Shown: piece by piece, positions 463 to 37,467 of the stretch | How the letters are laid out: each line of letters starts with the position of its first letter | How positions within the stretch are numbered: position 1 is the stretch's first letter | NCBI GenBank assembly: GCA_031263295.1 | Contig: JAISGC010000092.1 | Location: 1-39,363, forward strand | Direction: 5' to 3' | Length of the DNA: 39,363 nucleotides | DNA from: Rickettsiales bacterium | Lineage (GTDB): Bacteria > Pseudomonadota > Alphaproteobacteria > Rs-D84 | Translations under genes and position numbers: made by a program | Notes under the pieces: model-generated | What the model was told of the DNA's origin: nothing | The model's database searches: none | The model's input: only the letters and a program-made list of their open reading frames with translations

Positions 463-1176
463 TTAGGTATCAGGTATCTGGAAACAGGTATCAGGGGTGC
501 AGTGCAAATTATAAGACAATGCCTTGCAACAAATGCAGACCTCCTGATACCTGTTTCCAGATACCTGATACCTATGTCTGTGCCGGACATAGACGATGAT
601 GTCCGCAGAAAGCGCGCCGATGAACGCGCCCGCCAGGACATCCGTCGGCCAATGCGCGCCGTAGCACACGCGGCCGATTCCGGCTATTGCCGCAATCGTC
701 CAAGAGACAGGCTTTAACCGCGGATAGAGCAGCCCGATTGAAACCAATGCCGCGAACGCGCCCGCCGTATGGCCGGACGGAAAGCTGTGCGCGATGTCCG
801 ACATCGAGAACGGGTCGAACGCGTGGAACGGGGGCCGCAGGCGCCCGACCGCGAGCTTTATCGCGCCGACGAGACCCTCGGCGAGCACGACGGCGCAAAA
901 AATGTTGGCCGAAAGTTTTTCAAGCCCGAGTTTGTTTGTCGTCGCGAACCTGTATATTTTCGCCGCGATAAAGGCGAGCAGGGCGGCCGCCGCTATATAT
1001 TTCCATTGCCCGACCGAATCCGTCCAGGCCCAGATTTTCCAGTCCGAAAAAGGCCGCGTCAAATCGAACAGAAATCCGTCCGCCCCTGCGAATCCAAGGA
1101 TCAGAAGAATTGTCAATATTATCGTTCCGCGAAAAACCGCGCGCGGGTTTATATGCTCGTGTTTGGTCAGAAACAT
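463..1176 (-). CDS. PAP2-family (acid phosphatase / undecaprenyl-diphosphatase-like) membrane protein
   Basis: The three PAP2 motifs are present: KLAVGRLRP, FPSGHT, GRVCYGAHWPTD. The protein is hydrophobic with multiple TM segments. The last ~36 codons and the stop codon are encoded by the MITE-like repeat at 465-573. Confidence 0.8.
   Translation of the reverse strand: MFLTKHEHINPRAVFRGTIILTILLILGFAGADGFLFDLTRPFSDWKIWAWTDSVGQWKYIAAAALLAFIAAKIYRFATTNKLGLEKLSANIFCAVVLAEGLVGAIKLAVGRLRPPFHAFDPFSMSDIAHSFPSGHTAGAFAALVSIGLLYPRLKPVSWTIAAIAGIGRVCYGAHWPTDVLAGAFIGALSADIIVYVRHRHRYQVSGNRYQEVCICCKALSYNLHCTPDTCFQIPDT
465..573. mobile_element. MITE-like 109-bp element, copy 1 (31-bp perfect terminal inverted repeats built of AGGTATC heptamers)
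   Basis: Left arm AGGTATCAGGTATCTGGAAACAGGTATCAGG (465-495) is the exact reverse complement of 543-573. A second copy lies at 16850-16959 in the opposite orientation. No transposase is present in the window. Confidence 0.7.
1093..1105 (+). repeat. Polar AAGGATCAGA motif, loop-less copy (inside PAP2 CDS)
   Basis: TCCAAGGATCAGA. The exact 10-mer AAGGATCAGA is at 1096-1105 on the + strand. Confidence 0.6.
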
Positions 1177-1179
1177 TTT

Positions 1180-2733
1180 TTATTCCTTTGATGAAAGCCG
1201 GTTGTAGACCTCGGGCGCGAGAAGTATGTCCATCGCGACCGCCGATGCCGCCGCGTCCTCGTCGGCCCCGGACTTTATGTTCGGGCATCCGCGGCGTATT
1301 TCCGCCGGGTCGAATTGGGCGTCGTTGAAGTCCTTGGCCGCGTATTCGCGATTTTTGATGTTCAGAACGAAGGCGTCCTTTTGGTCCGCGGTCCGAATAT
1401 TAGACAGGCATACAAGCGGGAAAAATCCGCGGCCGTCGATTTTGCGCCCTTGGCCCGATTTGATTTCGCGGTTCAGAAGTTCGAGCGTTCCGCCGTTTTT
1501 AAGAGGAAGCTTTGATAATAATTTCGCGCGTCCTGCGGTCGGAACGCCGATAACGACCGCCGCATTGTTCTCCCACAGCGCGAAGGCCAATGCCTCGGCC
1601 GCGCCGTTGGTCGCGTTCGATACCGCCGCCACAATCGGAACGCCCGCCGCCATGGGCTCGTTCGACGGGATTATCTCGACATCGTCCGTCGCGACCTCGG
1701 ACATCAATGCGACCGGAACCTGCCCGACCAGCAAGCCCGCCAATTGCGCGAAGGCCGTCTCGTCGTCGCCGCCCGTCGCGCGCAGGTCGAGGTATATTCC
1801 GGCGATTTCGCTCTTGTAAATATCCAATGCGTTCATAATTATGTCGACCGCCCCGGGCGTTATTTTATGGACTATGATTTCAAGTATCGAGCCGCCCGCA
1901 TTCGTATTCATAAGGACCACATCCGCGTCCGCGAGTATTATCGACGCGCGCCGAAGCGTCGCCGATTTTTCTTTGCGGTCGCGGCCGATCGCACGGACCT
2001 TTATAGTGCCCGACGAAAATCCGTTGAAGAGACCGAGGACCTCCATATCGGACAAATCGCGCAGCCTGCGTCCGTTCGCCATTGTCAGAATGTCGCCCTC
2101 CTCCAAGCCCGCCGCGTCAGCAGACGAGCCCTTGAATATGGTATTGATTACATAGTCGCCCGATGTTGTCCGGACGCCCGCGATGCCGAGCGTCGTCAAA
2201 ACATGCGGGTCGTCGGAGAGCGTTCGCGGCGCCGTGTATTTTCCGCTTTCGTTTATTCCGCGCATCATGGCCGTTATCGCGGCGCGATATATTTCGGACG
2301 CCGGTATGGTGGAGCGCGGCGCCAGTTTCGATATTATCGCGGTCGTTATCTCGCCATAGCTTTTCCAGTCCTTGTCCGCGGGCCGCGGCCAGTTTCCGAT
2401 AATATCGTTGGCGCGCAGAACCACCACCCGTTGGTCGGTCGCGGCGATTTTTATCTTCGGCGCTATGTTTTCCAAGGATTCCAACGCGACGCGCATATCC
2501 TTGCCGCCCCATTTCACCCCGTCGAGCGTTTCATATATGTCCGCGAATGTTTCGGACATTTCCGATTCGGCCGCGGTCAGTTCGTCGAACTGCGGCGCCG
2601 CCTCGGCGGCGAAGCCGCCGAGAGAGAACAGAGATACGAAAATAGAGAATAAGAGAATAAGAGAATAAGAGAACGGAGCCTGACATAACCGCCGTGCTTT
2701 AAGTTTTAATGAAAGCATTTTAATAATCTCCAT
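1180..2733 (-). CDS. S41 (C-terminal processing peptidase)-like secreted protein with PDZ-like segment; catalytic residues appear substituted
   Basis: The ORF is 517 aa; an alternative ATG at 2718 has a better-spaced GGAG. It has a signal-like N-terminus, a PDZ-like GLEEGDILTMANG, and S41 core blocks IYLDLRATGG, VSNATNGAAEALA and GVPTAGRAKL. Confidence 0.65.
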   Translation of the reverse strand: MEIIKMLSLKLKARRLCQAPFSYSLILLFSIFVSLFSLGGFAAEAAPQFDELTAAESEMSETFADIYETLDGVKWGGKDMRVALESLENIAPKIKIAATDQRVVVLRANDIIGNWPRPADKDWKSYGEITTAIISKLAPRSTIPASEIYRAAITAMMRGINESGKYTAPRTLSDDPHVLTTLGIAGVRTTSGDYVINTIFKGSSADAAGLEEGDILTMANGRRLRDLSDMEVLGLFNGFSSGTIKVRAIGRDRKEKSATLRRASIILADADVVLMNTNAGGSILEIIVHKITPGAVDIIMNALDIYKSEIAGIYLDLRATGGDDETAFAQLAGLLVGQVPVALMSEVATDDVEIIPSNEPMAAGVPIVAAVSNATNGAAEALAFALWENNAAVVIGVPTAGRAKLLSKLPLKNGGTLELLNREIKSGQGRKIDGRGFFPLVCLSNIRTADQKDAFVLNIKNREYAAKDFNDAQFDPAEIRRGCPNIKSGADEDAAASAVAMDILLAPEVYNRLSSKE

Positions 2734-2786
2734 TCTCTTACTCTCTGCAAACGCGAAGCGTTTGCGCTCTCTTATTCTCTATTCAT
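2644..2786. repeat. GAGAATAA-octamer inverted-repeat region with embedded GCAAACGC-GAA-GCGTTTGC hairpin
   Basis: The tandem (GAGAATAA) x3.5 at 2644-2673 lies inside the signal-peptide codons of the S41-like gene. The complementary ATTCTCTTA.../CTCTTATTCTCTATTC arm is at 2730-2784. An 8-bp-stem hairpin is at 2747-2765. The same family occurs at 5196-5306. Confidence 0.75.
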
Positions 2787-3643
2787 TTTTCCCGGATATT
2801 AAAGTTCATAAGGAGCGCGTTCGAGACGAATATCGAAGAGAGCGTTCCCTCGAATATCGAAAACAGCATGGCCAGCGCAAAGTCGCCCAGCGTTCCGCCC
2901 GCAAATATCAGCATCGCCATCATTCCGAGCGCCGTCGAGACCGATGTTATCTGCGTGCGGACGAACATCTCGTTCACGGACAAATCTATAAGCTGGTCCG
3001 TCGGCATAGTCTTGTATTTCTTCGCGTTCTCCTCGATGCGGTCGTAGTTCACGATTTTGTCGTTTATCGAATATCCTATGCCGGTCAGAATCACCGCTAT
3101 CGCCGTCTGGGAAAACTCCAATCCCGCAATCGAATAAAATCCGAACATCAAAAAGAAATCCAATGAAAGCGCCAGAAACGAGCCGACCGCGTATCCGCCC
3201 CTGTATCGAATCCACACATAGACCGCCATCATAAGGAACGCGAATACTATCGCCATAATTCCGCCGCGTATCAGTTCGCCGCCGATTTTCGGCCCGACTA
3301 TCTGAACCTGCTGATAGCTCACCCGGTCGCCGAGGGCCTTTTTGATTTCGGCGACGCGCGCGTTCTGCTCCGCCTCGGTCGCGTTCTTATCCAGACCGAC
3401 GCGTATCAGGACATTGCCTTTGTCATCGGCTTGGAGCTCGGGATTCCATTCGGCCAGGTCGCCGCGCATTTTATCGAGCTGGTATCCCGCCGCCGGCTTC
3501 GCGTCTATCGCGATGCCGCCCGAAAAGTCTATGCCATAGTTCAGCCCCTTGAAAACCAAGGATGCGACAGCACCGAGTATCAGCAGAACGCTGACCGCGT
3601 AGACCAGTTTCCGGTATTTCATAAACTTGAAGTCGAATGTCAT
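2783..3643 (-). CDS. secF: Protein translocase subunit SecF
   Basis: 286 aa with the N-terminus MTFDFKFMKYRKLVY...GIDFSGG and the SecF TM pattern. It has a 4-bp ATGA overlap with the upstream secD. Confidence 0.9.
   Translation of the reverse strand: MTFDFKFMKYRKLVYAVSVLLILGAVASLVFKGLNYGIDFSGGIAIDAKPAAGYQLDKMRGDLAEWNPELQADDKGNVLIRVGLDKNATEAEQNARVAEIKKALGDRVSYQQVQIVGPKIGGELIRGGIMAIVFAFLMMAVYVWIRYRGGYAVGSFLALSLDFFLMFGFYSIAGLEFSQTAIAVILTGIGYSINDKIVNYDRIEENAKKYKTMPTDQLIDLSVNEMFVRTQITSVSTALGMMAMLIFAGGTLGDFALAMLFSIFEGTLSSIFVSNALLMNFNIREK
3547..3563 (+). repeat. Degenerate copy of the polar palindromic motif (inside secF CDS)
   Basis: CCTTG-AAAAC-CAAGGAT followed by GCGA instead of CAGA. Confidence 0.35.
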
Positions 3644-5181: not shown

Positions 5182-5195
5182 AACTCTTTCCTTGT

Positions 5196-5306
5196 AAGAA
5201 AGAGAATGAGAGAATGCAAACGCTTCGCGTTTGCAGAGAATAAGAGAATGGCGTTTGCGACTCCGCAAGTTCCATTCTCTTATTCTCTTATTCTCTTATT
5301 CTCTAT
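5196..5306. repeat. GAGAATAA/GAGAATG repeat inverted pair with TGCAAACGC-TTC-GCGTTTGCA hairpin (fills the yajC-secD spacer)
   Basis: AGAGAATGAGAGAATG is at 5201-5216, the palindrome at 5215-5235, GAGAATAAGAGAATG at 5236-5250, and the complementary ATTCTCTTATTCTCTTATTCTCTTATTCTCT at 5274-5304. The yajC stop codon (5303-5305) lies in the last unit. Confidence 0.75.
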
Positions 5307-5578
5307 ACTATGTTCGCCACGGCGCTTTTCGGAATCTCTATCACGACTCCGTCGGCGATTTCGACGCGGACGGCCTCGTCCTTTATCTCGCGTATCGTGC
5401 CGTAGATTCCGCCCGCGAATATTATCCGCGCGCCGACTCTCAATCCCGCCAGCATATTCTTATATTCGGCCATCTTCTTTTTGTTCGGCCGTATCATCAT
5501 AAAATACATCAGGGCGAAGATTACCCCGCACCAGATTATCATTCCCAAAGTGCTGTTCCCGGTGGCTGCGTTTTCCAT
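5303..5578 (-). CDS. yajC: Preprotein translocase subunit YajC
   Basis: 91 aa with a single N-terminal TM and FALMYFMMIRPNKKK followed by a GD.V.T.GG.G-like C-terminal region. SD AAGGA lies upstream. The position upstream of secDF is the classic arrangement. Confidence 0.9.
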   Translation of the reverse strand: MENAATGNSTLGMIIWCGVIFALMYFMMIRPNKKKMAEYKNMLAGLRVGARIIFAGGIYGTIREIKDEAVRVEIADGVVIEIPKSAVANIV

Positions 5579-5640
5579 AATAAATCCTTTTATTTATGGG
5601 AATATAGCAATAAAAAGCGGGAAGTGCAAAGGGCAAAATA

Positions 5641-5751
5641 GGGGTCAGGGACAGGGGTTAGGGGTTAGCGCAGCGCGCGATAAGTTTTTTATAAAAAACA
5701 AGCGTGGCAACAATATTCTCTATCCCCTAACCCCTGTCCCTAACCCCTAAC
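5641..5751. repeat. G-rich heptamer inverted repeat (GGGGTCAGGGACAGGGGTTAGGGG / complement)
   Basis: Arm 5641-5664 matches the reverse complement of 5724-5747 with one mismatch, separated by a ~59-nt AT-rich spacer. Each arm has four G-runs. The mutL stop (5747-5749) lies in the right arm. Confidence 0.75.
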
Positions 5752-7381
5752 TTCTCTCGAACCGGCCGTCCAGCTCGTCGAATGTGAAGACGCGCCAGAC
5801 CGGGCGGCCGTGGTTGCATTCCCCGCCGCGCTCGGTCTCTTCGATTTGCCGCAGGAGCGCGTTCATTTGCTCCAACGACAGGCGCTGGCCCGCGCGGACG
5901 CTGTGGTGGCAGGCGTAATTCGCGAGCTTCAAGTGCAGTTTTTCCATCGCGATGGACGAATGGCCGTTGGCTTGAACTTCGTCCGCCATCGCGCCGAGGC
6001 ATTCGGTCCAGTCCAAGTCGAAGTCCGCGGGCTTTTCATAAATCGCAATATCGTCTTCGCCGAACGGCCCGAGCGCGAGGCCCGACGCCGCGAGCTCGTC
6101 CTTCAATTCCAGAACGCTCGCGGCCTGGCCCGGGCGCAGGCGGATTATTTCCGGCGCGAGAAGCGGCTGGCGCTTGACGGCTCCGGTCCGCAGCTTCTCG
6201 TATGTGATGCGTTCGTGCGCGGCGTGCTGGTCTATGATAATCAGCCCCGTCGCCGTCTCGGACAGAATATATTTGTTCGCGATCTGCGCGCGGGCCAGCC
6301 CCAGCGGATAATCCAAAGCGGGCAGGGGCGAATCGATTTGATTCGGCGCGGGCATCGCGGCGAACAAATCCTGCGGCCCGGACCAGGCGGGGGCGGCGAT
6401 TGGAAAATCCACCCCGGCCAGCGGCCCAGATATTGCGGCCGTCGGCGTCGCCGCGATGGCCGCGCGAAGAGCCTTCACGATAAAATCCCGGATGCGGTTC
6501 GGCTCTAAAAAATGCACATCGGTTTTGGCGGGCGAGACATTCACATCGACCGATTGCGGCGGCAGTTCCAGATACAAACAGCACAGCGGAAACTCGCGCG
6601 CATGCATCACATCGAAGTATGCGGCGCGGAGCGCCCCGACCAAAACCTTGTCTTTCACGGGCCGCCGGTTCACGAACAGATACTGGTCGATGGAGCTGGC
6701 GCGGCGCAAGGTGGGCTTGCTTGCGAATCCGGTCAGCTTTATGTCTCCGTCCGCCGCGTTTATTTCAAGCATCCCGTCTTCGGCGTCGTTTCCCATAATC
6801 GCTCCGATCCTTGCAATCAAAGGATCAGAACGATTGTATCGGTATTTGTCATTGAGGTTGAAGCCGATGTCGGGGCGCGCGAGCGCGAGCCGTTTCACGA
6901 CCTCGGCAATCGCCATCATCTCGACCCTGTCGGCGCGGAGAAACTTCAATCTTGCGGGGACTTTTTGGAAAAGATTTTTGACGCGGACGCGCGTGCCCGA
7001 TTCCCAACTGCTCGGGCGGACGGCCCCGTTTTCAAGCGCCATTCCGTTCGTTTCTATGATGGTCTCCGAGACCGACGAAATCGACGGCAGGGCCTCGCCG
7101 CGGAATCCCATAAAGTTTATGTTCAATAAATCGTCCGTGGGCAGCTTGCTGGTTGCATGGCGCAGGACCGATTTCTCCAAATCCTCGCGCGACATTCCGC
7201 CGCCGTTGTCCGCGACCTGTATCAGCGTTCGCCCGCCGTCTATGACATTTATCGTTATCTCGGTTCCGCCCGCGTCCAGCGCGTTTTCGACCAGTTCTTT
7301 GACGACGCTGGCGGGCCGTTCGACCACCTCGCCCGCGGCGATTCTGTCAATCAGTTCATCGGGCAGAATCCTAACCTGCAT
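5747..7381 (-). CDS. mutL: DNA mismatch repair endonuclease MutL
   Basis: The N-terminal GHKL ATPase motifs are present (RIAAGEVVERPASVVKELVENALDAG). The C-terminal endonuclease motif DQHAAHERITYE is present. At 544 aa it is short for MutL. Confidence 0.9.
   Translation of the reverse strand: MQVRILPDELIDRIAAGEVVERPASVVKELVENALDAGGTEITINVIDGGRTLIQVADNGGGMSREDLEKSVLRHATSKLPTDDLLNINFMGFRGEALPSISSVSETIIETNGMALENGAVRPSSWESGTRVRVKNLFQKVPARLKFLRADRVEMMAIAEVVKRLALARPDIGFNLNDKYRYNRSDPLIARIGAIMGNDAEDGMLEINAADGDIKLTGFASKPTLRRASSIDQYLFVNRRPVKDKVLVGALRAAYFDVMHAREFPLCCLYLELPPQSVDVNVSPAKTDVHFLEPNRIRDFIVKALRAAIAATPTAAISGPLAGVDFPIAAPAWSGPQDLFAAMPAPNQIDSPLPALDYPLGLARAQIANKYILSETATGLIIIDQHAAHERITYEKLRTGAVKRQPLLAPEIIRLRPGQAASVLELKDELAASGLALGPFGEDDIAIYEKPADFDLDWTECLGAMADEVQANGHSSIAMEKLHLKLANYACHHSVRAGQRLSLEQMNALLRQIEETERGGECNHGRPVWRVFTFDELDGRFERS
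6822..6852 (+). repeat. Polar palindromic motif copy (inside mutL CDS)
   Basis: CTCCGATCCTT-GCAATCA-AAGGATCAGAACG. The exact 10-mer is at 6840-6849. Confidence 0.65.
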
Positions 7382-7904
7382 TTTCTATCACCCATTCCGC
7401 GCATTTAATCATAGCGTAAAAATCATTGAAATCCGGCGCGTCCATTTTGATTTTTTTATGAGAAATATCAACGGGCAGCGCGTTCCAAATGTTGTTCATT
7501 TCATAATTGCCGAAATCCATTCCGACGGGCTCCTTCAACACGAATGCGCGCCACAAGGCAATGTGCGCGGGCTCCATATCGTTTTCGTTCGGATCCTTGC
7601 AAACAAAGGATCGGAACGATTCATAGGCTGGCGCGGTCATAGCCGCGCGAAGACACATTTCCGTGTCCGCGCATCCGCCGTCCTCGTATCTTATCGACAT
7701 CCATCCGCGCCGATCCGCCGGTATCAAATCAATCCAATTTCTCATAAGCTTCGCCGCGGCAAAATCAGTTCCTTCGGGCGCGGGCAGGGCGGGGACCTCT
7801 ATTCTTGGCGCGACGATTTTCGACAGAGCCGCGCGGACTTTTTCGTCCGCTATGTCGGTCGTCATCTCCGCGCGCTTTTTAAGATAGGTCAAATCAATCG
7901 CCAT
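7371..7904 (-). CDS. Hypothetical protein (177 aa) wedged between greA and mutL
   Basis: Long ORF with an ATG start. It has 11-bp overlaps with greA (3' end) and mutL (5' end), suggesting translational coupling. I recognise no family motif. Confidence 0.55.
   Translation of the reverse strand: MAIDLTYLKKRAEMTTDIADEKVRAALSKIVAPRIEVPALPAPEGTDFAAAKLMRNWIDLIPADRRGWMSIRYEDGGCADTEMCLRAAMTAPAYESFRSFVCKDPNENDMEPAHIALWRAFVLKEPVGMDFGNYEMNNIWNALPVDISHKKIKMDAPDFNDFYAMIKCAEWVIENAG
7587..7618 (+). repeat. Polar palindromic motif, near-perfect palindrome variant (inside orf177)
   Basis: CGTTCGGATCCTT-GCAAACA-AAGGATCGGAACG. Confidence 0.55.
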
Positions 7905-10595: not shown

Positions 10596-11060
10596 ATGAT
10601 ACAAAAATGTGATTTTAAGGGATGCGAAAAACTGGGCAACTGCCGCTGCCCGAAGAATCGCGAGCTGAAAGACTATTGGCATTTCTGTCAGGAGCATGCG
10701 GCCGAATACAACAAGAACTGGAATTATTACGCCGGTATGACCGAGGACGAAATCGACCGCGAATGGGAGAAGGATACTTTCGGCGAGCAGCGGGCCGACG
10801 GGTCATACACCGCGGCCATACGCGATTTCCTGGCGGGCAAGACCAGGGTGCCCGAAAAGAAAAAATCCGCGCCGACCGACATCGCGCGCGCGTTCAATCT
10901 GTTTGGCCTGCCGTCGACGGCGGGCTGGGGCGAGGTTCAGAAAAAATACCGCGCGCTCGCCAAGGCGCATCACCCCGACGCCAGCAAATCCAAGGATCAG
11001 AGCAGATTCATAGAAATCGGAAAGGCGTATGCTCTGCTGAAAAAGTTTTTCGGAAAATAG
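10596..11060 (+). CDS. J-domain protein with N-terminal Cys/His-rich segment
   Basis: The C-terminal J domain reads VQKKYRALAKAHHPDAS...AYALL (HPD motif). The N-terminus is CDFKGCEKLGNCRCPKN...HFCQEH. Confidence 0.75.
   Translation: MIQKCDFKGCEKLGNCRCPKNRELKDYWHFCQEHAAEYNKNWNYYAGMTEDEIDREWEKDTFGEQRADGSYTAAIRDFLAGKTRVPEKKKSAPTDIARAFNLFGLPSTAGWGEVQKKYRALAKAHHPDASKSKDQSRFIEIGKAYALLKKFFGK
10988..11002 (+). repeat. Polar AAGGATCAGA motif, loop-less copy (inside J-domain CDS)
   Basis: ATCCAAGGATCAGAG. The exact 10-mer is at 10992-11001, read as K-D-Q. Confidence 0.6.
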
Positions 11061-12335: not shown

Positions 12336-12346
12336 AGCAGGCGAGG

Positions 12347-28087: not shown

Positions 28088-29388
28088 GGCCGTTTAAGTT
28101 CGCTGCGCATCTTGTCCCAGTAATCCAGGCGCTTTTTTATCTCGCGCTCGAAGCCGCGCTCGACCGGCGTATAAAACTTTTGCCGGCCCATTTGTTCCGG
28201 AAAGCAATTCTGGCCGGAAAATCCCGATTCGGTGTCGGGCTCATAGACATAGTCTTTGCCGTAATCCATATCCTTCATCATTCGCGTCGGCGCGTTCAGT
28301 ATATTTTTCGGCGGCATCAGGGACCCGTATTTTTCGGCCGCGGCCCATGCGAACATTTTCGCTTTGTCGTTGCGATTGCTTTTCGGCGCCGTGCCGAGAT
28401 AAATCACAAGTTCGGTCAATGCTATGTCGCCTTCGGGACTGCCCATTCTGTCGTATGCGTTCCAGCACGCGATGGCGAGCTGCACTGCCTGCGGATCGGC
28501 CAGGCCGACATCCTCCATTGCGAATCGGGTCAGACGGCGAAATAAATACTGCGGGTCCTGGCCGCCGGTCATCATCCGCGCGACCCAGTAAAGCGCCGCG
28601 TCCGTGTCGGATGCGCGCAAAGATTTATGCACGGCCGAGATTAAATTATAATGCTCGTCGCCGGTCTTGTCCGACAGCATCGCCTTTTTCTGAACCAGTT
28701 TATCAAGCGCCTCCGATGAAATCGGGCGCGCGACTTTTGCGTCGGCGAGATACTCGATTGTGTTCAATAAAAAGCGCGCGTCGCCATCCGCCATTTCGGA
28801 GAGCGACTTTCGCGCCGCGTCGTCAAGCAACGGAAACACTTCGAGATATTTTTCCGCCCTTTCGCTCAACCCCAACAAATCAAAGGATGAGAGCGGTTCA
28901 AGCACTCCGATATGGCACCGCGAGAGCAGGGCGTTATTTAACGAGAACGACGGGTTCTCGGTCGTCGCGCCGACAAACACGACCGTGCCGTCTTCGAGAT
29001 ACGGCAGCAATGTATCCTGCTGTGTTTTGTTGAAGCGGTGGATTTCGTCGATAAACAGAAGCGTGCCGCGGCCAAGCACCGCGTCCATCTTCGCCGCCTC
29101 CATCGCCTTCTTTATATCGGCCGTTCCGGAAAATACCGCCGACATCGGAATGAATGTCATATCGGTCGTTTTCGCCAAGGCTCGCGCTATCGTCGTCTTG
29201 CCGCATCCCGGCGGCCCCCACAAAATCATATTCGACAATTTGCCGTTGTCCGCCATTTGGCGCACGATTCCCGATTCGCCAAGCAGTCGCGGCTGGCCCA
29301 CGATTTCATCTATCGTTTTCGGGCGCATGCGGTCGGCCAGCGGCTGGCGCGGGCTTGAAATCGGCGAAATACTTTGTTTTACTTTCAT
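28084..29388 (-). CDS. rarA: Replication-associated recombination protein RarA/MgsA (AAA+ ATPase)
   Basis: It has PLADRMRPKTIDEIVGQ, Walker A GPPGCGKTT, Walker B LFIDEIHRFNK and the C-terminal MgsA_C-like DPQ..RRL...EDVG. The ATG at 29388 is preferred over the track TTG at 29430. Confidence 0.88.
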   Translation of the reverse strand: MKVKQSISPISSPRQPLADRMRPKTIDEIVGQPRLLGESGIVRQMADNGKLSNMILWGPPGCGKTTIARALAKTTDMTFIPMSAVFSGTADIKKAMEAAKMDAVLGRGTLLFIDEIHRFNKTQQDTLLPYLEDGTVVFVGATTENPSFSLNNALLSRCHIGVLEPLSSFDLLGLSERAEKYLEVFPLLDDAARKSLSEMADGDARFLLNTIEYLADAKVARPISSEALDKLVQKKAMLSDKTGDEHYNLISAVHKSLRASDTDAALYWVARMMTGGQDPQYLFRRLTRFAMEDVGLADPQAVQLAIACWNAYDRMGSPEGDIALTELVIYLGTAPKSNRNDKAKMFAWAAAEKYGSLMPPKNILNAPTRMMKDMDYGKDYVYEPDTESGFSGQNCFPEQMGRQKFYTPVERGFEREIKKRLDYWDKMRSELKRP

Positions 29389-29857: not shown

Positions 29858-30906
29858 TGCAAAACCTCTATTCCAAATCTTTATCGGAGATTGAAAAAAT
29901 CGTTTCGGACCTCGGCGAGCCGAAGTTCCGCGCCAAGCAAATCCGCGAATGGCTGGACCGCGGATGCCCTGATTTCTTGCTTATGAAAAACATCGGCGCG
30001 CCGCTTCAATCAAAATTGTCAGAATCGTTCCAATCCTTGCCAATCAAGGATCAGAGCGTTTTGGCATCCGCCGACGGCGCGACGAAAAAGTTCCTTTTCG
30101 AGATAGAGGGAGGCGCGAAAATCGAATCGGTTTTAATGAAGACCAGCTATGGAAACAGCGTTTGCGTTTCGTCTCAGGCGGGCTGCGCCATGGGTTGCCG
30201 ATTCTGCGCTTCTACCTTGCTCGGCCTGTCGCGGAATCTTACGGCCGACGAAATGACGGCGCAGGTTTTGCGGTGCCAATGGGAATGCAGGCAAGACGGC
30301 ACGCGTCCAAACGGCGATAAAAATCAGAACGACATAACGCACATTGTAATAATGGGAACGGGCGAGCCGTTGGCTAATTACGACAACACCATCGCGTTTA
30401 TGGCGGCGGCGAATGAAAAGCTAAATATCGGATGGCGGCGAATAACATTGTCGACCTGCGGGTTGGTTCCGGAGATTCGGCGCCTGCGCGATTTTGGCGA
30501 ACCGATAAACCTTGCGATTTCGCTTCACGCGCCGAACGATGCTCTGCGCCGCGAAATTATGCCGATTGCGAATAAATATTCAATTGCCGAAACGCTCGAT
30601 GCTGCGTTCGAGTTCTCGACTCTGCACAATCGCCAACTGATGATCGAATATATTTTACTCGGCGGCGTGAATGATTCGGACGAGAATGCGGCGGAGCTTG
30701 CGGCGCTGCTTCGCGGCAAATTGGTTATGGTAAATCTGATTCCTTGGAATCCTGTCGCCGAGCGCGACTGGGCCGCCGCTCCGTCCGGCAACCGGGTTCA
30801 CAAGTTCCAGGATATTTTAATCGCGGCGGGCGTCCACACGCGAATCCGCAAAGAACGCGGCGCCGACATAGGTTCGGCCTGCGGCCAGCTGCGCCTCGGC
30901 AAATAA
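29857..30906 (+). CDS. rlmN: 23S rRNA/tRNA adenine-C2 methyltransferase RlmN (radical SAM)
   Basis: 349 aa from ATG 29857. It has PKFRAKQIREW, the radical-SAM cluster CAMGCRFCAS, GEPLANYDN and the C-terminal ...GADIGSACGQL. Confidence 0.88.
   Translation: MQNLYSKSLSEIEKIVSDLGEPKFRAKQIREWLDRGCPDFLLMKNIGAPLQSKLSESFQSLPIKDQSVLASADGATKKFLFEIEGGAKIESVLMKTSYGNSVCVSSQAGCAMGCRFCASTLLGLSRNLTADEMTAQVLRCQWECRQDGTRPNGDKNQNDITHIVIMGTGEPLANYDNTIAFMAAANEKLNIGWRRITLSTCGLVPEIRRLRDFGEPINLAISLHAPNDALRREIMPIANKYSIAETLDAAFEFSTLHNRQLMIEYILLGGVNDSDENAAELAALLRGKLVMVNLIPWNPVAERDWAAAPSGNRVHKFQDILIAAGVHTRIRKERGADIGSACGQLRLGK
30029..30058 (+). repeat. Polar palindromic motif copy (inside rlmN CDS)
   Basis: TCCAATCCTTG-CCAAT-CAAGGATCAGAGCG. 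It shares 27/30 nt with the copy at 32648-32677. Confidence 0.65.
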
Positions 30907-32477: not shown

Positions 32478-33110
32478 TTATTTTTTTATGACAATGTATC
32501 GCGTGACGCCCGCGCCGAACATATCTTTTTCTTGATACCTTGTTTTTACCGGCGGCATTTTTTCGGCCGATATTTTTAATCCGGCGGATTTTATTTGCAG
32601 AAGAATCCAATCGAAATAGTCCGCGTGGTCGGTGCCTATGGAAATCTTCCCATCCTTGCAAATCAAGGACCAGAGCGTTTTTATGAAGTCCGCGGACAAG
32701 AGCCGCCGCTTCTCGTGCCTGGCCTTCGGCCACGGGTCCGGATGCAAAATCCATATTTCTGAAAACGGCCCGGCGGCGGGCATTTTTCGGATGTCGTCGG
32801 GCCAAATTCTGATGTTTTTATATTGCGGCAAAATCTTGCCCTCGTCGTCCGCTATGCGCGACAATAACGACGCGACGCCGTTTATAAAAGGCTCCGCCCC
32901 TATGATTATTTTATCGGGGTTTGCTTCGGCGAGTTCGATAATGTGTTCTCCCGCGCCGAAACCGATTTCTAGTATAGGACTAGGATTAGGACTAGGACTG
33001 GGGAGCAGGGACGGCAAAAGTTTGTCGACAAGATGCTGTTGCCGCGCGGACAGGCTTTTGCCGTGGACCCGGCCGAATGTTCGGATAAATTGATTTTCCG
33101 TCTTTTCCAT
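32478..33110 (-). CDS. trmB: tRNA (guanine46-N7)-methyltransferase TrmB
   Basis: The start is placed at ATG 33108-33110, which avoids overlapping the divergent gltX. It has the SAM motif LEIGFGAGEH and the block IWILHPDPWPKARHEKRRL. It contains the in-frame heptamer-repeat peptide PSPSPNPSP. Confidence 0.85.
   Translation of the reverse strand: MEKTENQFIRTFGRVHGKSLSARQQHLVDKLLPSLLPSPSPNPSPILEIGFGAGEHIIELAEANPDKIIIGAEPFINGVASLLSRIADDEGKILPQYKNIRIWPDDIRKMPAAGPFSEIWILHPDPWPKARHEKRRLLSADFIKTLWSLICKDGKISIGTDHADYFDWILLQIKSAGLKISAEKMPPVKTRYQEKDMFGAGVTRYIVIKK
32648..32677 (+). repeat. Polar palindromic motif copy, variant (inside trmB CDS)
   Basis: TCCCATCCTTG-CAAAT-CAAGGACCAGAGCG. Confidence 0.6.
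32974..33003. repeat. Single arm of the GGACTAG-heptamer repeat, in frame inside trmB
   Basis: ATAGGACTAGGATTAGGACTAGGACTGGGG. The 20-mer 32977-32996 is identical to 14014-14033. It encodes PSPSPNPSPI on the minus strand, just upstream of the SAM-binding motif. Confidence 0.75.
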
Positions 33111-33126: not shown

Positions 33127-34692
33127 ATGAGAAACGGATTGTCGAAAGATTTAATCGCGCGAGTTTTGGGTGTCGCGCCGAAATACACGCTCGCGGAATT
33201 GGAAGAAAAATATCCGCCGCGAGACCTGCAAGACGGCGCGATGGTGACGCGCTTTGCGCCGTCGCCGACCGGCTTTATGCATATCGGAAATCTTTACTCG
33301 ATGCTGATTGATAAAAAATTGGCGCAACAATCCGCGGGCGTTTTTTATCTGCGTATAGAGGACACGGACACCAAACGCGAAATCTCCGGCGCGGTCGATG
33401 TTATTTTGGATGCCGCCAGGACATACGATTTGACTCCGGACGAGGGGCCGTTTTATCAATCCGAGCGCAAAGATATTTATCACTCGGTTGCGGCCGAGTT
33501 GCTGGCGACCGGCCGTGCGTATCCTTGCTTTTTGACAACGGACGAAATGGAGGCGATTCGCGAGAAACAAAAGGCGGCCGGACTGGCCACCGGAATATAC
33601 GGCGATTGGGCGAAATGGCGCGATGCGACGGACGATGAAATCATTGCCGAATTGGACGCGGGGCGGACGCCCAGCATCCGGCTCTGGTCCTTGGGAAACA
33701 AGGATCAGAAGATTTTTTGCAAGGATGCTGTCCGCGGCTCAATCGCGTTTCCCGAGAACGACGAGGATGTAGTTTTAATCAAGTCGAACGATGGGCTTCC
33801 GACATATCATTTCGCGCATCTGGCGGACGATCATTTTATGCGGACCACGCATGTCGTGCGCGGCGAGGAATGGCTGCCGTCGTTGCCGCTGCATTATCAG
33901 TTGTTCAAGATGATGGAATGGGCGCCGCCCGCATACATCCACACATCGACACTGGACACAATAGACGCCGAAACTGGAAAGCAGAGGAAATTATCAAAGC
34001 GAAAAGACCCATTTGCGAACATTGCTTTTTTTGCCGAATCCGGCTGGCCCGGCGATGCTGTTCTGGAATACCTGTTCAATATAGTGTCGAGCGGCTATGA
34101 AGACGAAAAAGCAAAAGGCAAGGTCGCGAACATCTGGGATGCGGAATTAAAAATCAAAAAGATTCCGACATCGGGCGCTTTGTTCGACTGGAAAAAACTC
34201 GAATGGTGGAGCAGGGAGTTTATCGCGGCTCTCTCGGTCGAAGAATTGGTCCGGCGCGTTTCAGACTGGGCCGCCGAGTATGGCGATGCCGCGAACAAGG
34301 CCGAGGTCGCGGATGAAAAATATCTGCGGGCGATTCTTTCGATAGAGCGCGACAATCCCAAACGCGTCAGAAAAGACTTTATAAACTGGAAGCAGACGCT
34401 GGATGAAATATCGTATTTCTTCGACGATTTATTCGCTGCGCCGGAGGCCGCGCAATTGAACAAAGATATTTTGCGCAATTTCCTCCAATCCTTTGATTTC
34501 AAGGATCAGAAGGATTTATGGTGGGAGAAAATCCAAAAAATCGCGAACGATTTTGGCGTGCCGAACGGCGATGCGGCGATGGCTCTCCGGATCGCGATAA
34601 CCGGCCGCACTATGGCCCCGGATTTATATTCCGTTATGCAGGCGATGGGCGAGGCCCGCGTCCACAATCGCATAGAAAAGGCGTTGAAATGA
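33127..34692 (+). CDS. gltX: Glutamate--tRNA ligase
   Basis: 521 aa. The class I signatures present are RFAPSPTGFMHIGN (HIGH) and KLSKRK (KMSKS). The GluRS blocks YLRIEDTD and DG.PTYHFA are also present. Confidence 0.9.
   Translation: MRNGLSKDLIARVLGVAPKYTLAELEEKYPPRDLQDGAMVTRFAPSPTGFMHIGNLYSMLIDKKLAQQSAGVFYLRIEDTDTKREISGAVDVILDAARTYDLTPDEGPFYQSERKDIYHSVAAELLATGRAYPCFLTTDEMEAIREKQKAAGLATGIYGDWAKWRDATDDEIIAELDAGRTPSIRLWSLGNKDQKIFCKDAVRGSIAFPENDEDVVLIKSNDGLPTYHFAHLADDHFMRTTHVVRGEEWLPSLPLHYQLFKMMEWAPPAYIHTSTLDTIDAETGKQRKLSKRKDPFANIAFFAESGWPGDAVLEYLFNIVSSGYEDEKAKGKVANIWDAELKIKKIPTSGALFDWKKLEWWSREFIAALSVEELVRRVSDWAAEYGDAANKAEVADEKYLRAILSIERDNPKRVRKDFINWKQTLDEISYFFDDLFAAPEAAQLNKDILRNFLQSFDFKDQKDLWWEKIQKIANDFGVPNGDAAMALRIAITGRTMAPDLYSVMQAMGEARVHNRIEKALK
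33682..33711 (+). repeat. Polar palindromic motif copy (inside gltX CDS)
   Basis: CTCTGGTCCTT-GGGAAAC-AAGGATCAGAAG. The exact 10-mer is at 33700-33709. Confidence 0.65.
34483..34513 (+). repeat. Polar palindromic motif copy (inside gltX CDS)
   Basis: CTCCAATCCTT-TGATTTC-AAGGATCAGAAGG. The exact 10-mer is at 34501-34510. Confidence 0.65.
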
Positions 34693-35426
34693 AAAAGAAA
34701 CAGCAGGCGAAAATCATAAAAAAATCGGCGCGCGGCGGAGCGTTGTTGCGCGCGTTGCAGGCGACCGGATTATTCCGCTGGGAAAAGCCGGTCAGCCATG
34801 GAGAATCGGTCGCGAACATTCTGACGCACGGGATAGGAATCGGAATAGCTATCGCCGCGCTGGTTGTCCTTGAATGCTTCGCGGTTCTCTCGGGCGATCC
34901 GTGGGCGGTCGCATCCTGCGCGATTTTCGGCGCGACTATGTTCACGCTTTATTTCGGCAGCACAATGTGCCACGCGATGATAGGTTGCAAATACGATAGT
35001 TTTTTCGAGGTCTGGGATTCGATTTCGATTTACGCATTGATTGCCGGAACATACACTCCGTTCTGTCTGGTGAATCTTCGCGGGCCGCTCGGCTGGTCCG
35101 TGTTCGGCCTGATGTGGGGAATCGTCGCCCTCGGCGCCGCGATTAAAATACGGAATCCGAACCGCCAGCCCAAATGGATTGTCGCGCTCTATCTTCTGAT
35201 GGGCTGGACGATACTCTTCATAATTCCGGCGATGCTGAACAATGTTCCGGCGCGCGGATTGTGGTTCATATTGGCGGGCGCGCTGTCATACACAATCGGC
35301 GTGATATTTTATCTGTGGCGGAGGATGAAGTTCTCGCATATGGTCTGGCATCTGTTCGTAATCGGCGGGACGATTTCGTTCTTCTTCTCCGTCCTGTTCG
35401 GGAGCATCATAGACTATGCGCGTTAA
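34689..35426 (+). CDS. Hemolysin III / PAQR-family membrane protein
   Basis: 245 aa from ATG 34689, with an ATGA overlap with the gltX stop. It has 7 TM segments and the family His motifs (NILTHGIG..., MCHAM, FSHMVWHLFV). Confidence 0.8.
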   Translation: MKKKQQAKIIKKSARGGALLRALQATGLFRWEKPVSHGESVANILTHGIGIGIAIAALVVLECFAVLSGDPWAVASCAIFGATMFTLYFGSTMCHAMIGCKYDSFFEVWDSISIYALIAGTYTPFCLVNLRGPLGWSVFGLMWGIVALGAAIKIRNPNRQPKWIVALYLLMGWTILFIIPAMLNNVPARGLWFILAGALSYTIGVIFYLWRRMKFSHMVWHLFVIGGTISFFFSVLFGSIIDYAR

Positions 35427-37467
35427 AATAATCAACATAGCCAGCGCCGTCGCCGCCGCATTGGCGATGGTTTTCATATTACAAAGGAATGAAAAAATGA
35501 GCGAAGGAATCAGACTTGAAAACCTGGACGCGGCCGTGCGGCCCCAGGATGATTTTTACGATTTTGCGACCGCGGGCTGGCGCAAAGCGAATCCCCTGCG
35601 CCCGGAGTTTTCAAGGTTCGGAGCGTTCGACAAACTGGGCGAGGAGGTCTTGGTCCAGGTCGACGAACTGATAACCGGCATAGCGAAGGACCCGCGCGGC
35701 GATTTGGAAAATAAAATCGCGACGATTTACAACGGCGCGATGAATTACGATAAACGCAACGCGGACGGAATAAAACCGGTCGCCGCGGAGTTCGCGGAAA
35801 TCGACGCGATGACGGACTGGGAGACATATCTCGGCCGCGCGCACCGCATCGGCGGCGTCTTTTTCAACAGCGGGACGGATGTCGATATGATGGATTCCGG
35901 GACGCATATTTTCGGCATAAGCCAGACGCATTTTCCGTTGTCCCGCGATTATCTTTTGGACAAGGACGACAAGTCCGCGCGCGTGCGTTCGGAATACGGC
36001 CGCTATATCGGAAAAGTGCTCGCGATGTTCAGAATCGTCGGCACGGACGCGAGGGAGATTTTGGAATATGAAATAGAAATGGCAAAGGGGCTGTATCCGA
36101 AGGAAAAATTGCGCGAGCCATTGGACAACTATCACAAGATGTCGGTCGAGGAATTGAAAAAAAGATTCGCCGGATTTGATTGGGATAAATATTTTAAGGC
36201 TCGCGGCGCGGCGCCCGAAGTGGTCGATGTTGGCCAGCCGGAGCCGGTTGAACAAGCAATAAACATTCTGATAGAGTCGCAGAACAAGAGTATGCCCGCG
36301 GCGGCTCGCCGCCTCCAATCCTTACGAACAAAGGATCAGAGATTTCTACGCGCGTATCTGAAATACAGGATTGCGAACGGCGCGATGACGGAGCTCGGCG
36401 ACGCACAGTATGACCTCGCGTTCGATTTCTACGGCCGTATGGTCAGCGGCAAGGAGGAGCGCCGCCCGAAGTGGAAGGACGCCGCGAACATAACCGAGGG
36501 CGTTCTGGGCGAGGCGATAGGCCAGCTCTATGTCAAAAAATATTTCCCGCCTGAGGCGAAAAAGCGGATGGTCGATCTGGTCGAAAATCTTCGCCGCGCG
36601 TATGCCGACCGATTGGGCGCAATCGATTGGATGTCGCCGGAAACCAAAAAGGCGGCGCAGGAAAAATTGGCCGCGTTTGGCGTCAAAATCGGATACCCGG
36701 ACAAATGGCGCGATTACTCGAAACTCGAACTCAAAGGCGATTCGCTTTACGCCGATCTGGTGCGCTCGGCGCGGTTCGATGACGATTGGGAATTGGAAAA
36801 ACTGCGCGGCGGGCGCGTAGACAGGACCGAGTGGCATATGACGCCGCAGACCGTCAACGCATACTTTTCGCCCGTGAATAACGAGATTGTTTTTCCCGCC
36901 GCGATCTTGCAGCCGCCGTTCTTCGATATGACGGCCGACGATGCGTTCAACTACGGCGCCATCGGATCGGTCATCGGGCACGAGATGACGCACGGCTTCG
37001 ACGATTCGGGCCGCCGGTTCGATAAAGACGGAAATATGAAAAACTGGTGGACGGACGCGGACACGAAAAACTTCGACGCGCGCGCCAAGGTTATGAAGGA
37101 CTGGTTCGATAAAATCGAGGTCGCGCCCGGCCTTCATGCGAACGGCGAGTTCACGCTGGGCGAGAATCTGGCCGACTACGGCGGGCTGACGATTGCGTTC
37201 GACGCATATAAAAAATACGGGCGGGCGGCAGGCGCGGGCGAAAAATACACGCCGGAGCAAAGATTCTTCATCGCATACGGCGGCGCGGAAATCGCGAACA
37301 TCCGGCCCGACGAAGTCATCCGGCGGACCAAGGTCGACGAGCACTCGCTGAGCGAATGGCGGGTCAACGGAATCCTGCCGCATGTGGACGCGTGGCAGAC
37401 CGCGTTCGGCGTCGCGGACGGCGACAAGATGTGGCTCGCGCCGGACAAACGGGTCAGGCTTTGGTAA
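35416..37467 (+). CDS. pepO: M13-family zinc metallopeptidase (PepO / endothelin-converting-enzyme-like)
   Basis: 683 aa. It has HEMTHGFD (HExxH), ENLADYGG and the N-terminal RPQDDFYDF. The start may be 35416 (which gives a signal anchor) or the ATG at 35497. Confidence 0.88.
   Translation: MRVKIINIASAVAAALAMVFILQRNEKMSEGIRLENLDAAVRPQDDFYDFATAGWRKANPLRPEFSRFGAFDKLGEEVLVQVDELITGIAKDPRGDLENKIATIYNGAMNYDKRNADGIKPVAAEFAEIDAMTDWETYLGRAHRIGGVFFNSGTDVDMMDSGTHIFGISQTHFPLSRDYLLDKDDKSARVRSEYGRYIGKVLAMFRIVGTDAREILEYEIEMAKGLYPKEKLREPLDNYHKMSVEELKKRFAGFDWDKYFKARGAAPEVVDVGQPEPVEQAINILIESQNKSMPAAARRLQSLRTKDQRFLRAYLKYRIANGAMTELGDAQYDLAFDFYGRMVSGKEERRPKWKDAANITEGVLGEAIGQLYVKKYFPPEAKKRMVDLVENLRRAYADRLGAIDWMSPETKKAAQEKLAAFGVKIGYPDKWRDYSKLELKGDSLYADLVRSARFDDDWELEKLRGGRVDRTEWHMTPQTVNAYFSPVNNEIVFPAAILQPPFFDMTADDAFNYGAIGSVIGHEMTHGFDDSGRRFDKDGNMKNWWTDADTKNFDARAKVMKDWFDKIEVAPGLHANGEFTLGENLADYGGLTIAFDAYKKYGRAAGAGEKYTPEQRFFIAYGGAEIANIRPDEVIRRTKVDEHSLSEWRVNGILPHVDAWQTAFGVADGDKMWLAPDKRVRLW
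36313..36343 (+). repeat. Polar palindromic motif copy (inside pepO CDS)
   Basis: CTCCAATCCTT-ACGAACA-AAGGATCAGAGAT. The exact 10-mer is at 36331-36340. Confidence 0.65.

Follow-up and report, generated by a model that had tools for sequence, protein, structure and literature searches.

A split-dyad DNA word overlaid on housekeeping genes of an uncultured alphaproteobacterial lineage, a candidate recognition site of a dimeric protein

Introduction

Uptake signals, chromosomal landmark arrays and interspersed palindromes are the described systems that stand closest to the element reported here, a dyad-symmetric word of about 27 bp that is overlaid on coding sequence at ~13 positions in housekeeping genes of one bacterial lineage and that we analysed in a stretch of 39,363 nt (contig JAISGC010000092.1, assembly GCA_031263295.1; hereafter the window, in + strand coordinates). 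Uptake signal sequences (USS) and DNA uptake sequences (DUS) are asymmetric 9-12-mers, mostly single, that occur about once per 1-3 kb throughout the genome, originate by substitution and are conserved at orthologous sites. Their bias toward certain reading frames, their placement at poorly conserved residues and their absence from genes without homologues have been documented (PMC2817400). The present word resembles them in being lineage-specific, over-represented and located in core genes, with preferred frames, origin by substitution and shared orthologous positions; it differs in being a dyad of 2 x 10 bp at fixed spacing and in leaving stretches of 10-18 kb without a strong copy.

Arrays of protein-binding sites offer a second comparison. 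In Corynebacterium glutamicum, ten parS sites lie within 35 kb (PMC7083940), and the word considered here likewise forms several near-identical palindromic sites within a few tens of kb, conserved in relatives and predicted to be recognised as duplex by a dimer. The canonical 16-bp parS TGTTNCACGTGAAACA, however, is unrelated in sequence and has no 7-bp spacer; no match to it with two or fewer mismatches was found in any locus, and there is no ACGT at all in the window. Nor are parAB or origin markers found nearby here, and nine of the ten C. glutamicum sites are intergenic, whereas all of ours lie in coding sequence. The matS site is a 13-bp palindrome that occurs about once per 35 kb. The ZapT sites of Caulobacter, which is alphaproteobacterial, lie mostly inside open reading frames (ORFs) (PMC7188993). 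Both systems share with ours a modest number of protein-binding sites, mostly within ORFs of one region, although in our case the binding is predicted; they differ in that no consensus motif is known for ZapT, that nothing indicates proximity of the window to the terminus and that no convincing dif site was found in the loci.

Interspersed palindromes resemble the element more in appearance. Rickettsia palindromic elements (RPEs) are insertions of 100-150 bp that add a peptide segment to the host protein; like our element, they are palindromic repeats in protein-coding genes of Rickettsiales and are translated in frame, but no motif-associated length change was seen here at any aligned site. 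Highly iterated palindrome 1 (HIP1) of cyanobacteria, GCGATCGC, is an 8-bp contiguous GATC palindrome of substitution origin, present in thousands of copies per genome, whose function has not been settled. It shares with our word the over-representation of a GATC-containing palindrome in genes and its conservation at orthologous positions, whereas ours, a split dyad, spreads its 27 bp over two arms and an N7 spacer, has no more than tens of copies in the DNA covered and does not hold GATC invariant, since positions 6-8 of its arms vary. Repetitive extragenic palindromic (REP) sequences and bacterial interspersed mosaic elements (BIMEs) are likewise genomic repeats of 20-40 nt with imperfect palindromic symmetry; they are, however, extragenic insertions with a conserved 5' tetranucleotide and a REP-associated tyrosine transposase (RAYT) gene, while the present copies are intragenic and show no insertion, no covariation and no transposase nearby.

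Methods

Homologues of its GltX and MutL place the window in an uncultured alphaproteobacterial lineage that some sources label 'Rickettsiales bacterium', and the closest proteins to these two share only ~72-75% identity with them. Syntenic DNA came from seven relatives, namely L014, L016, L017, L018 with L023 (contiguous, 42.8 kb), L020/L021, L022 and L024/L026, whose loci range in GC content from 37% to 55%, and from an outgroup locus, L025 (21.6 kb), which carries rarA, trmB, gltX and thrS. In total, ~170 kb of lineage DNA was covered, as loci and not as complete genomes. Copies of the motif were scored by nhmmer profile search of the window and the relatives' loci. Abundance was compared with two nulls: dinucleotide shuffles of the window, and 1000 synonymous-codon shuffles that kept every protein and each gene's codon usage. 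Half-site statistics refer to 52 pooled half-sites, and codon statistics of frame 1 (defined below) to 24 copies.

Results

An over-represented dyad inside genes

The 10-mer AAGGATCAGA occurs seven times on the + strand of the window and not once on the - strand, in agreement with the count made in an earlier, sequence-only reading of this DNA, whereas dinucleotide shuffles yield 0.04; with one mismatch allowed, 15 matches are found against 1.6 expected. This enrichment survives the codon-shuffle control. Synonymous shuffles produced a mean of 0.33 copies of the 10-mer (maximum 2) and 0.35 copies of the core TCCTT-N7-AAGGA, which is also observed seven times, and in neither case did any of the 1000 shuffles reach seven.

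The sequence-only reading took as its unit ATCCTT followed, after 5-7 nt, by the 10-mer. The actual unit is larger and symmetric: a dyad TC-N3-TCCTT-N7-AAGGA-N3-GA of ~27 bp, ideally TCTGATCCTT-N7-AAGGATCAGA, with A/T-rich outer flanks that bring its full extent to ~39-41 bp (AAAWCGCTC-TGA-TCCTT N7 AAGGA-TCA-GAGCGWTTT). Good examples are the copies in mutL, AATCGTTCCGATCCTT-GCAATCA-AAGGATCAGAACGATT, and in rlmN, GAATCGTTCCAATCCTT-GCCAATC-AAGGATCAGAGCGTTTT. Within the half-site, positions A1 A2 G3 G4 A5 show little or no variation (48-52 of 52), T6 C7 A8 vary, and G9 A10 are again invariant (51-52 of 52), followed by R, S, R, W, T, T and T. G9 falls on the third base of its codon and stays in 51 of 52 half-sites despite changes of the codon (CAG, GGG, CCG, TGG, CGG), and because the base stays while its codon varies, selection appears to act on G9 itself. 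The spacing between the arms is fixed at 7 bp, and the strong copies in the window and its relatives are predominantly two-armed (34, versus ~6 with one arm).

The profile search of the window returned nine two-armed copies, of which one is weak and one a vestige, together with three one-armed copies (Table 1). All ten copies of the sequence-only reading are among them, in the host genes named there; its reading of the motif as AAG-GAT-CAG in + strand genes and the identity of the rlmN and trmB copies at 27 of 30 nt were likewise reproduced. One of its coordinates needs correction, that of the mutL copy, where the 10-mer begins at 6820, not 6840, and the hairpin spans 6796-6836, not 6822-6852. 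The statement that the motif occurs only in coding sequences holds for every copy but is uninformative, since ORFs occupy ~90% of the window (P = 0.27-0.38).

Table 1. Copies of the dyad in the window, with their codons and the state of the orthologous site in relatives.
Host gene	Position	Gene strand	Copy	Frame	Codons on the coding strand	Orthologous site
PAP2	1074..1112	-	one-armed; AAGGATCAGA at 1096-1105 (+), GCGAATCC before it	2	CTT CTG ATC CTT GGA (nhmmer 14.9 bits)	
secF	3535..3572	-	degenerate, weak two-armed	1	GCA TCC TTG GTT TTC AAG GGG CTG (S-L-V-F-K-G)	motif not present in L018, L020; length unchanged
mutL	6796..6836	-	strong two-armed	3	AAT CGT TCT GAT CCT TTG ATT GCA AGG ATC GGA GCG ATT (S-D-P-L-I-A-R-I-G)	both 10-bp arms perfect in L018, L022
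orf177 (conserved gene without assigned function)	7585..7622	-	strong two-armed	1	GAA TCG TTC CGA TCC TTT GTT TGC AAG GAT CCG AAC GAA	
DnaJ-domain gene	10987..11007	+	one-armed		AGC AAA TCC AAG GAT CAG AGC	half-site also in L022
rarA/mgsA AAA+ gene	28878..28899	-	weak one-armed; 5' arm	1	CCG CTC TCA TCC TTT GAT TTG	half-site present in L014, L016; absent in L023, outgroup L025
rlmN	30022..30062	+	strong two-armed	1	GAA TCG TTC CAA TCC TTG CCA ATC AAG GAT CAG AGC GTT	conserved in L014, L016, L018
trmB	32641..32681	-	strong two-armed	1	ACG CTC TGG TCC TTG ATT TGC AAG GAT GGG AAG ATT	
gltX, copy 'a'	33677..33716	+	two-armed	1	CGG CTC TGG TCC TTG GGA AAC AAG GAT CAG AAG ATT	
gltX, copy 'b'	34478..34517	+	two-armed	1	TTC CTC CAA TCC TTT GAT TTC AAG GAT CAG AAG GAT	
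pepO (M13 peptidase)	36309..36347	+	two-armed	1	CGC CTC CAA TCC TTA CGA ACA AAG GAT CAG AGA TTT	stronger in L014, L023, L024 than in the window
radical-SAM gene	38440..38460		vestige; 5' outer flank and 3' arm kept, 5' core lost	1	AAA ACT CTC ... AAG GAC TGG AAA GAT TTG	complete in L014, L017, L023, L024

The pattern TCCNATCCTT-N7-AAGGATCAGA, which is over-specific to the CAA variant of the window, found six and seven unrelated single matches in the genome and metagenome collections, respectively, as chance would give; the perfect dyad had one chance match among viral contigs, which offers no link to phages, and a search of the literature gave the 10-mer AAGGATCAGA in primers only.

Constraint on nucleotides, with copies gained and lost by substitution

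In the seven relatives, the motif is found at identical codons of gltX (two sites), rlmN, trmB, pepO, mutL and the radical-SAM gene, and half-sites lie at orthologous positions of the DnaJ-domain gene and rarA. Where two genomes encode the same amino acid, the codons are identical in 175 of 206 cases (85%) within the motif and in 2286 of 4316 (53%) outside it, the pairwise comparisons being non-independent. The codons concerned are not the preferred ones: TCC makes up 26% of Ser codons and TTR 32% of Leu codons, and the shares of AAG and GAT are 43% and 39%. The chance that a peptide S-L-x-x-K-D be written TCC-TTR-...-AAG-GAT is 0.014, yet this is how the window writes six of its seven S-[LF]-x-x-K-[DE] peptides.

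No match to the motif at E<1 was found in the 21.6 kb of the outgroup locus, and the host proteins were compared at the sites themselves. No motif-associated length change was seen at the GltX sites against 60 homologues or against the outgroup DNA, at the MutL site against 53 homologues, or in orf177, secF, lptG, the radical-SAM gene and trmB against the orthologues compared; RlmN aligns without gaps at the motif to solved RlmN structures in the PDB. Distant orthologues carry other residues over equal length, STGNPNARIF in GltX in place of the lineage's SLGNKDQKIF and GQPLIERV in MutL in place of SDPLIARI, and the spacer codons retain ancestral residues such as G-N in GltX and F-D in gltX-b. 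Orthologous positions, unchanged length, codon identity of 85% against 53% and a motif-free outgroup together show that the constraint acts on nucleotides and not on peptides or on an inserted element. The preference of the sequence-only reading for a nucleotide-level over a protein-level signal is thereby supported, as it also is by the codon shuffles and the use of three reading frames, and the segments that encode K-D-Q are overwritten sequence, not insertions.

The motif arose by base substitution. It has been retained at synonymous sites in genomes whose proteins diverge by 25-40% and whose GC contents span 18 points, and sites have been gained or lost singly, arm by arm, at constant length. 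In orf177, for example, the site is complete in the window, keeps the 5' arm only in L022 and the 3' arm only in L020, and has neither in L018, with the gene of equal length throughout. In L023 (trmB at 2133-2780, gltX at 3591-5309), the gltX-a and trmB motifs are absent and outgroup-like residues stand in their place (YSTGDKSRRIF), which reflects either a return to the earlier residues once the DNA constraint was lost or a replacement of the allele; the trmB motif is missing at unchanged length from both L023 and the outgroup. All four copies in L016 have GAC rather than GAT, possibly a 'dialect'. Because the lineage is an old, star-like radiation, the word has apparently been maintained for a long time, seemingly at some cost in protein sequence.

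Two of the host genes show further features of their own. In the window, orf177 (7371-7904, -) encodes a conserved protein of ~180 aa that has no Pfam or NCBIfam match; its orthologues lie at 9475-10011 in L018, 6208-6753 in L020 and 4299-4853 in L022, and the frame overlaps the mutL start in every relative. A 510-codon frame at 6456-7988 (+), antisense to mutL and orf177 and without family support, is most likely a GC-driven shadow ORF. In pepO (36250-36310), comparison with L014, L017, L023 and L024 shows about five extra codons in the window shortly before the motif; they are separate from it, in a region that is gapped and variable against solved M13 peptidases and where another alignment drew an 18-codon gap.

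Reading frames and the apparent strand polarity

In what we call frame 1 (x-TC NNN TCC TTx xxx xxx AAG GAx xxG Axx), the peptide is S-[LF]-x-x-K-[DG], and this frame is used in eight gene families (rlmN, trmB, gltX-a, gltX-b, pepO, the radical-SAM gene, orf177 and secF). The mutL site is read in frame 3 (TCT GAT CCT TTG ATT TCA AGG ATC AGA), and those of PAP2 and of lptG in L018 are read in frame 2. The - strand genes orf177, trmB and secF share the frame of the + strand genes relative to the dyad, so that the frame tracks the gene and not the chromosome.

A perfect 5' arm in frame 1 reads TC TGA TCC and thus contains an in-frame stop. In the frame-1 copies, the would-be TGA codon is never TGA (0/24) and is replaced by CAA, TGG, CAG, GGA, CGA, TCA, TAT and others, while TCA is kept by the 3' arm in 12 of 24; the coding strand is therefore the only one on which a perfect AAGGATCAGA can survive in this frame. 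The five + strand frame-1 sites account for five of the window's seven 10-mers. The remaining two come from the - strand genes mutL and PAP2, in which the TGA is out of frame and the perfect arm lies on the coding (-) strand; in mutL this arm is TCTGATCCTT, hence AAGGATCAGA on the + strand at 6820. The three - strand genes with a frame-1 site have imperfect 3' arms by chance. In frame 3, both arms of the mutL site are perfect in L018 and L022. Exact 10-mers occur in both orientations among the relatives (9 on one strand and 7 on the other), and rlmN is inverted in L014 and L018, the motif having been inverted along with it.

The single absolute orientation that the sequence-only reading ascribed to all copies is not seen in these relatives, and the C.A/A.C mismatches of the outer stem, in which it saw a strand asymmetry, are instead the residue of in-frame TGA avoidance, TC TGA TCC having given way to CAA, TGG, CGA or CAG. 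Its proposal of a transcription-independent, replication-oriented signal, akin to Chi or to FtsK-orienting polar sequences (KOPS), likewise found no support, as the element is a dyad whose orientation follows the host gene in the relatives. The apparent one-strand polarity is largely a side effect of the avoidance of in-frame stops. A recoding element of the selenocysteine insertion sequence (SECIS) kind, with TGA beside a hairpin, was also considered and was ruled out, as no copy keeps an in-frame TGA.

Duplex site or single-strand hairpin

The arms of the dyad are complementary solely because each matches one consensus. At the variable positions 6-8 and 11-15, complementarity between the arms is no higher than with shuffled partner arms, and no compensatory changes were found. 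Most copies fold better as single strands than their shuffled counterparts (mutL, orf177 and rlmN with z of -3 to -5), but several conserved copies fold weakly, at -4 to -6 kcal/mol with z of about -1.5 to -2.5 (trmB -4.7, pepO -4.1). One-armed copies are also conserved between genomes, in the DnaJ-domain gene (two genomes) and in rarA (three genomes). The motif matches no Rfam family; a scan for terminator-like sites gave 22, against 18.8 in shuffles, and thus no enrichment, with gltX-a as the only copy flagged, and the stems are of modest stability, so that the copies do not conform to intrinsic terminators, which are defined by a GC-rich stem directly followed by a U-run. These observations favour recognition of duplex half-sites by a putative symmetric protein over a signal carried by RNA or single-stranded DNA structure. 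The footprint of a hairpin-targeting element of the REP/RAYT or insertion sequence (IS) 200/IS605 type, which the sequence-only reading had offered as a further possibility, is contradicted by the lack both of motif-associated length changes and of compensatory changes in the arms, and no RAYT, TnpA (IS200) or other transposase, whether of the Y1 type or not, was detected among the ~40 window ORFs scanned with Pfam and NCBIfam. The core site of a tyrosine recombinase, to which 10-bp arms and a 7-bp spacer would correspond and for which a XerC/D-like gene is present at 9576-10535, was rejected as a recombination site, as the spacers differ between copies and the host genes are intact.

Distribution and genome context

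Between 11 and 28.8 kb the window has no copy of the motif (P ~0.001-0.006, with boundaries set post hoc). This stretch holds the genes for ribonucleotide reductase (RNR), cobalamin adenosyltransferase and thioredoxin reductase (trxB), together with lower-GC genes that are probably accessory. The ~10-13 kb from thrS to tatC in L023, L024 and L014 also contain no strong copy, with one weak 18.8-bit match within thrS of L024. Motif density is ~1 per 2.5-4 kb in core segments and zero in stretches of 10-18 kb. With two exceptions, the weak copy in thrS and a half-site next to cobA in L020, all sites belong to a single ancestral block of ~30 kb that runs from dnaJ-xerC-lptG-greA-orf177-mutL to gltX-pepO-radical SAM.

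An inversion of ~25 kb in the window, relative to L018, L014 and L026, splits this ancestral block. The inverted segment comprises trxB-RNR-...-dnaJ-xerC-lptG-greA-orf177-mutL-secDF-S41-PAP2 (window 1-18000 versus L018 1-21000, and L014), the window and L016 have rlmN on the opposite side of rarA-mucR, and ~10 kb of extra genes, among them those for a methyltransferase, an MFS transporter, OmpA-like proteins and MazG, sit at one inversion junction. The GC skew changes sign inside the window, whereas the orientation of the motif does not.

Searches of the loci for dif-like sites, canonical parS, DnaA boxes and CtrA boxes gave nothing convincing, and no dnaA, parAB or gidAB is present in the loci obtained; nor were competence genes seen in these ~170 kb. 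An intergenic sequence of L014, GCGCATAATATATATATTGTGCC (4590-4625, near 4604), in the middle of the motif block, bears a loose likeness to dif and Xer cores and has no counterpart in the other loci. A likeness of TGATCC to Caulobacter DnaA boxes was dropped, as the paper compared gives no sequences.

Discussion

We propose, at a probability of roughly 45%, that the motif is a double-stranded recognition site of a dimeric, sequence-specific DNA-binding protein and that its copies may form a landmark array of the parS or matS type. A dimeric reader is favoured because the arms independently approach one consensus, because each is built of an AAGGA and a GA block, and because the spacing is fixed at 7 bp with no compensatory pairing. 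A symmetric dimer would bind both arms of the duplex dyad, and single arms would serve as weak half-sites. If the motif is such a site, its role is somewhat more probably than otherwise that of a chromosomal landmark or loading array of the kind formed by parS, matS or ZapT sites, a preference that follows from the sites being few, nearly identical, mostly intragenic and contained within one ~30-kb syntenic block.

Several observations weigh against this proposal. The lineage DNA covered amounts to only ~170 kb, and a genome-wide density of ~1 per 3-4 kb would favour an uptake signal instead. None of the conserved ORFs without assigned function in the block, taken as possible binders, matches Pfam or NCBIfam, and no binding protein was identified. 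The scan statistic for clustering on the 42.8-kb contig of L018 and L023 reaches only P ~0.1, part of the empty stretch of the window is lower-GC and probably accessory DNA, and an assumed tolerance of amino acids is the sole explanation offered for the strong preference for frame 1, seen in 8 of 11 gene families. Moreover, some polarity is left that a symmetric binder does not predict: the + strand spacer is A-rich in seven of eight two-armed copies whatever the orientation of the gene, gltX-b being the sole two-armed copy in the window with a T-rich spacer on that strand, and all three half-sites have their AAGGA arm on the + strand, preceded by a GCAAATCC-like sequence. Spacers and half-sites together give a bias of 10 of 11 (P ~0.012), in a window that was chosen for this bias. 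As conserved residues partly dictate the spacer codons, this residual polarity may reflect history rather than function.

The main rival, which we regard as unlikely though by no means negligible, is an uptake signal, that is, a 'self' word of the USS/DUS type or another product of molecular drive, whereby biased uptake and homologous replacement would have spread the better matches. Such a history would account for an origin by substitution alone, with copies in core genes that do not change in length; for the strong frame bias and the choice of poorly conserved residues, exactly where outgroups differ; and for orthologous conservation combined with gain and loss in single lineages. The occurrence of single arms beside inverted pairs, the lack of any copy in the lower-GC, probably accessory stretch at 11-28 kb and the possible L016 dialect fit it as well, and the density in core segments is comparable to the 765 uptake sequences among 2,012 ORFs of Actinobacillus pleuropneumoniae. 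On the other hand, nearly all strong copies are dyads at fixed spacing, and core-gene stretches of 10-13 kb (thrS, ftsK, recJ, tatC) as well as the RNR-trxB segment lack a strong copy in several genomes; furthermore, we know of no natural transformation with an uptake sequence in this group. Quite improbable, in our judgement, is a single-strand hairpin signal, be it an intragenic (bidirectional) terminator or stability element or a target or footprint of REP/RAYT or IS200/IS605 TnpA transposases. Arms of 10-16 nt around a loop of 5-7 nt do fold better than shuffles in most copies, the A-rich 5' and T-rich 3' outer flanks resemble those of a bidirectional terminator, the gltX-a copy was flagged as terminator-like, and on the opposite strand G.T wobbles take the place of the A.C mismatches in frame-1 copies; however, it is the primary sequence and not the pairing that is conserved among unrelated genes, no variable arm position shows a compensatory change, several conserved copies fold weakly while one-armed copies are conserved, and neither insertions associated with the motif, nor a transposase among the ORFs scanned, nor an Rfam match, nor terminator enrichment was found.

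We give still less credence to a replication-oriented polar signal of the Chi, KOPS or Ter kind, a replication-oriented signal being one proposal of the sequence-only reading; an asymmetric unit, GCAAATCC-AAGGATCAGAGCG, would then hold one orientation with respect to the movement of the fork. All seven exact 10-mers, the A-rich spacers of most two-armed copies and every half-site do point one way in the window across both gene orientations, and under the gene order of the relatives L018 and L014 the sites would fall into two groups of opposite orientation, with the inversion breakpoint, between rlmN and rarA, as their meeting point. Nevertheless, two arms of one consensus make a dyad and not an asymmetric word; TGA avoidance, together with the pair of copies in other frames than frame 1, covers the asymmetry of the 10-mer; relatives have the 10-mer in both orientations, and the motif inverts with rlmN; and the window order and the L018-type order cannot both be co-oriented with replication, yet sites are conserved in both. 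The orientation also stays constant across the flip of GC skew, and the 10-of-11 statistic is post hoc in a window selected for the bias. The relic of an in-frame palindromic mobile element, inserted as RPEs are and then trimmed, is very improbable: near-identical palindromes of ~40 bp in unrelated genes of a lineage labelled Rickettsiales, mostly in one frame, recall such elements, but no site tested has extra residues relative to relatives, outgroups or solved structures, ancestral residues are kept in the spacer codons, and the arms were gained and lost independently. Hardly credible, finally, is protein-level selection on an S-L-x-x-K-D-Q peptide motif; although S-[LF]-x-x-K-[DG] is encoded in eight gene families, the codons are fixed and non-preferred, 0 of 1000 synonymous shuffles reach the observed counts, mutL translates the same DNA as S-D-P-L-I-x-R-I and lptG as L-I-L-x-S-K-G, and outgroup orthologues have other residues, with L023 outgroup-like where the DNA motif is absent.

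More tentatively than the dimer-site proposal itself, we suggest that the word belongs to a novel cis-element system, in which a 27-bp split dyad with a putative dimeric reader has been carried on a dozen or more housekeeping genes over a long time and at a measurable cost to the protein. It could act as a non-canonical centromere or landmark array; alternatively, it could be an uptake-type 'self' signal, the first beyond the Pasteurellaceae and Neisseriaceae. The case is one of dual coding: a signal at the nucleotide level shapes residues of essential enzymes (GltX, MutL, RlmN, TrmB) across a lineage, and where the signal is absent, as in L023, the protein shows outgroup residues. A landmark array, if this is what the sites form, would provide a handle on chromosome organisation in a group represented by metagenomes only, and an uptake-type signal would mean that this phenomenon reaches into a new context at phylum level. 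For palindromic words in genes, stop-codon avoidance in a favoured frame can by itself yield strand polarity, and motif scans should check for it before replication-linked signals are proposed.

Other features of the window

Several palindromic tetranucleotides are depleted in the window. ACGT and GTAC are entirely absent from its 39.4 kb (73 and 25 expected), and GATC and CATG stand at 0.29 and 0.42 of expectation. The relatives differ in the palindromes that are rare in them, namely AGCT and CTAG in L014, TCGA in L020 and GTAC in L017 and L022, which suggests restriction pressure with fast turnover. A gene for an N6-adenine DNA methyltransferase of the D12/Dam family (19566-20564, -) adjoins an unannotated 213-aa ORF (18923-19564, -), with which it possibly forms a restriction-modification pair; both sit in the motif-free, lower-GC stretch.

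The window also carries repeats that are distinct from the dyad. Perfect tandem repeats of 8 bp, AGAGAATA (3.8 units) and its reverse complement ATTCTCTT (3.9 units), lie at 2644-2673 and 5274-5304, where the genes for the S41 peptidase and SecD have their 5' ends, with more copies at 2769 and 5235. In addition, several families of inverted 12-mers, GGGAATGACAAA, AGGTATCAGGTA and ATTGCTCACTGC, occur as pairs 20-130 bp apart in or near intergenic DNA (13523/13543, 22975/23105 and 25937/26067; 465/562 and 16850/16948; 17896/17920 and 24384/24473). These pairs, which are unrelated to the motif, make up what the earlier reading had described as repeat-rich intergenic DNA.

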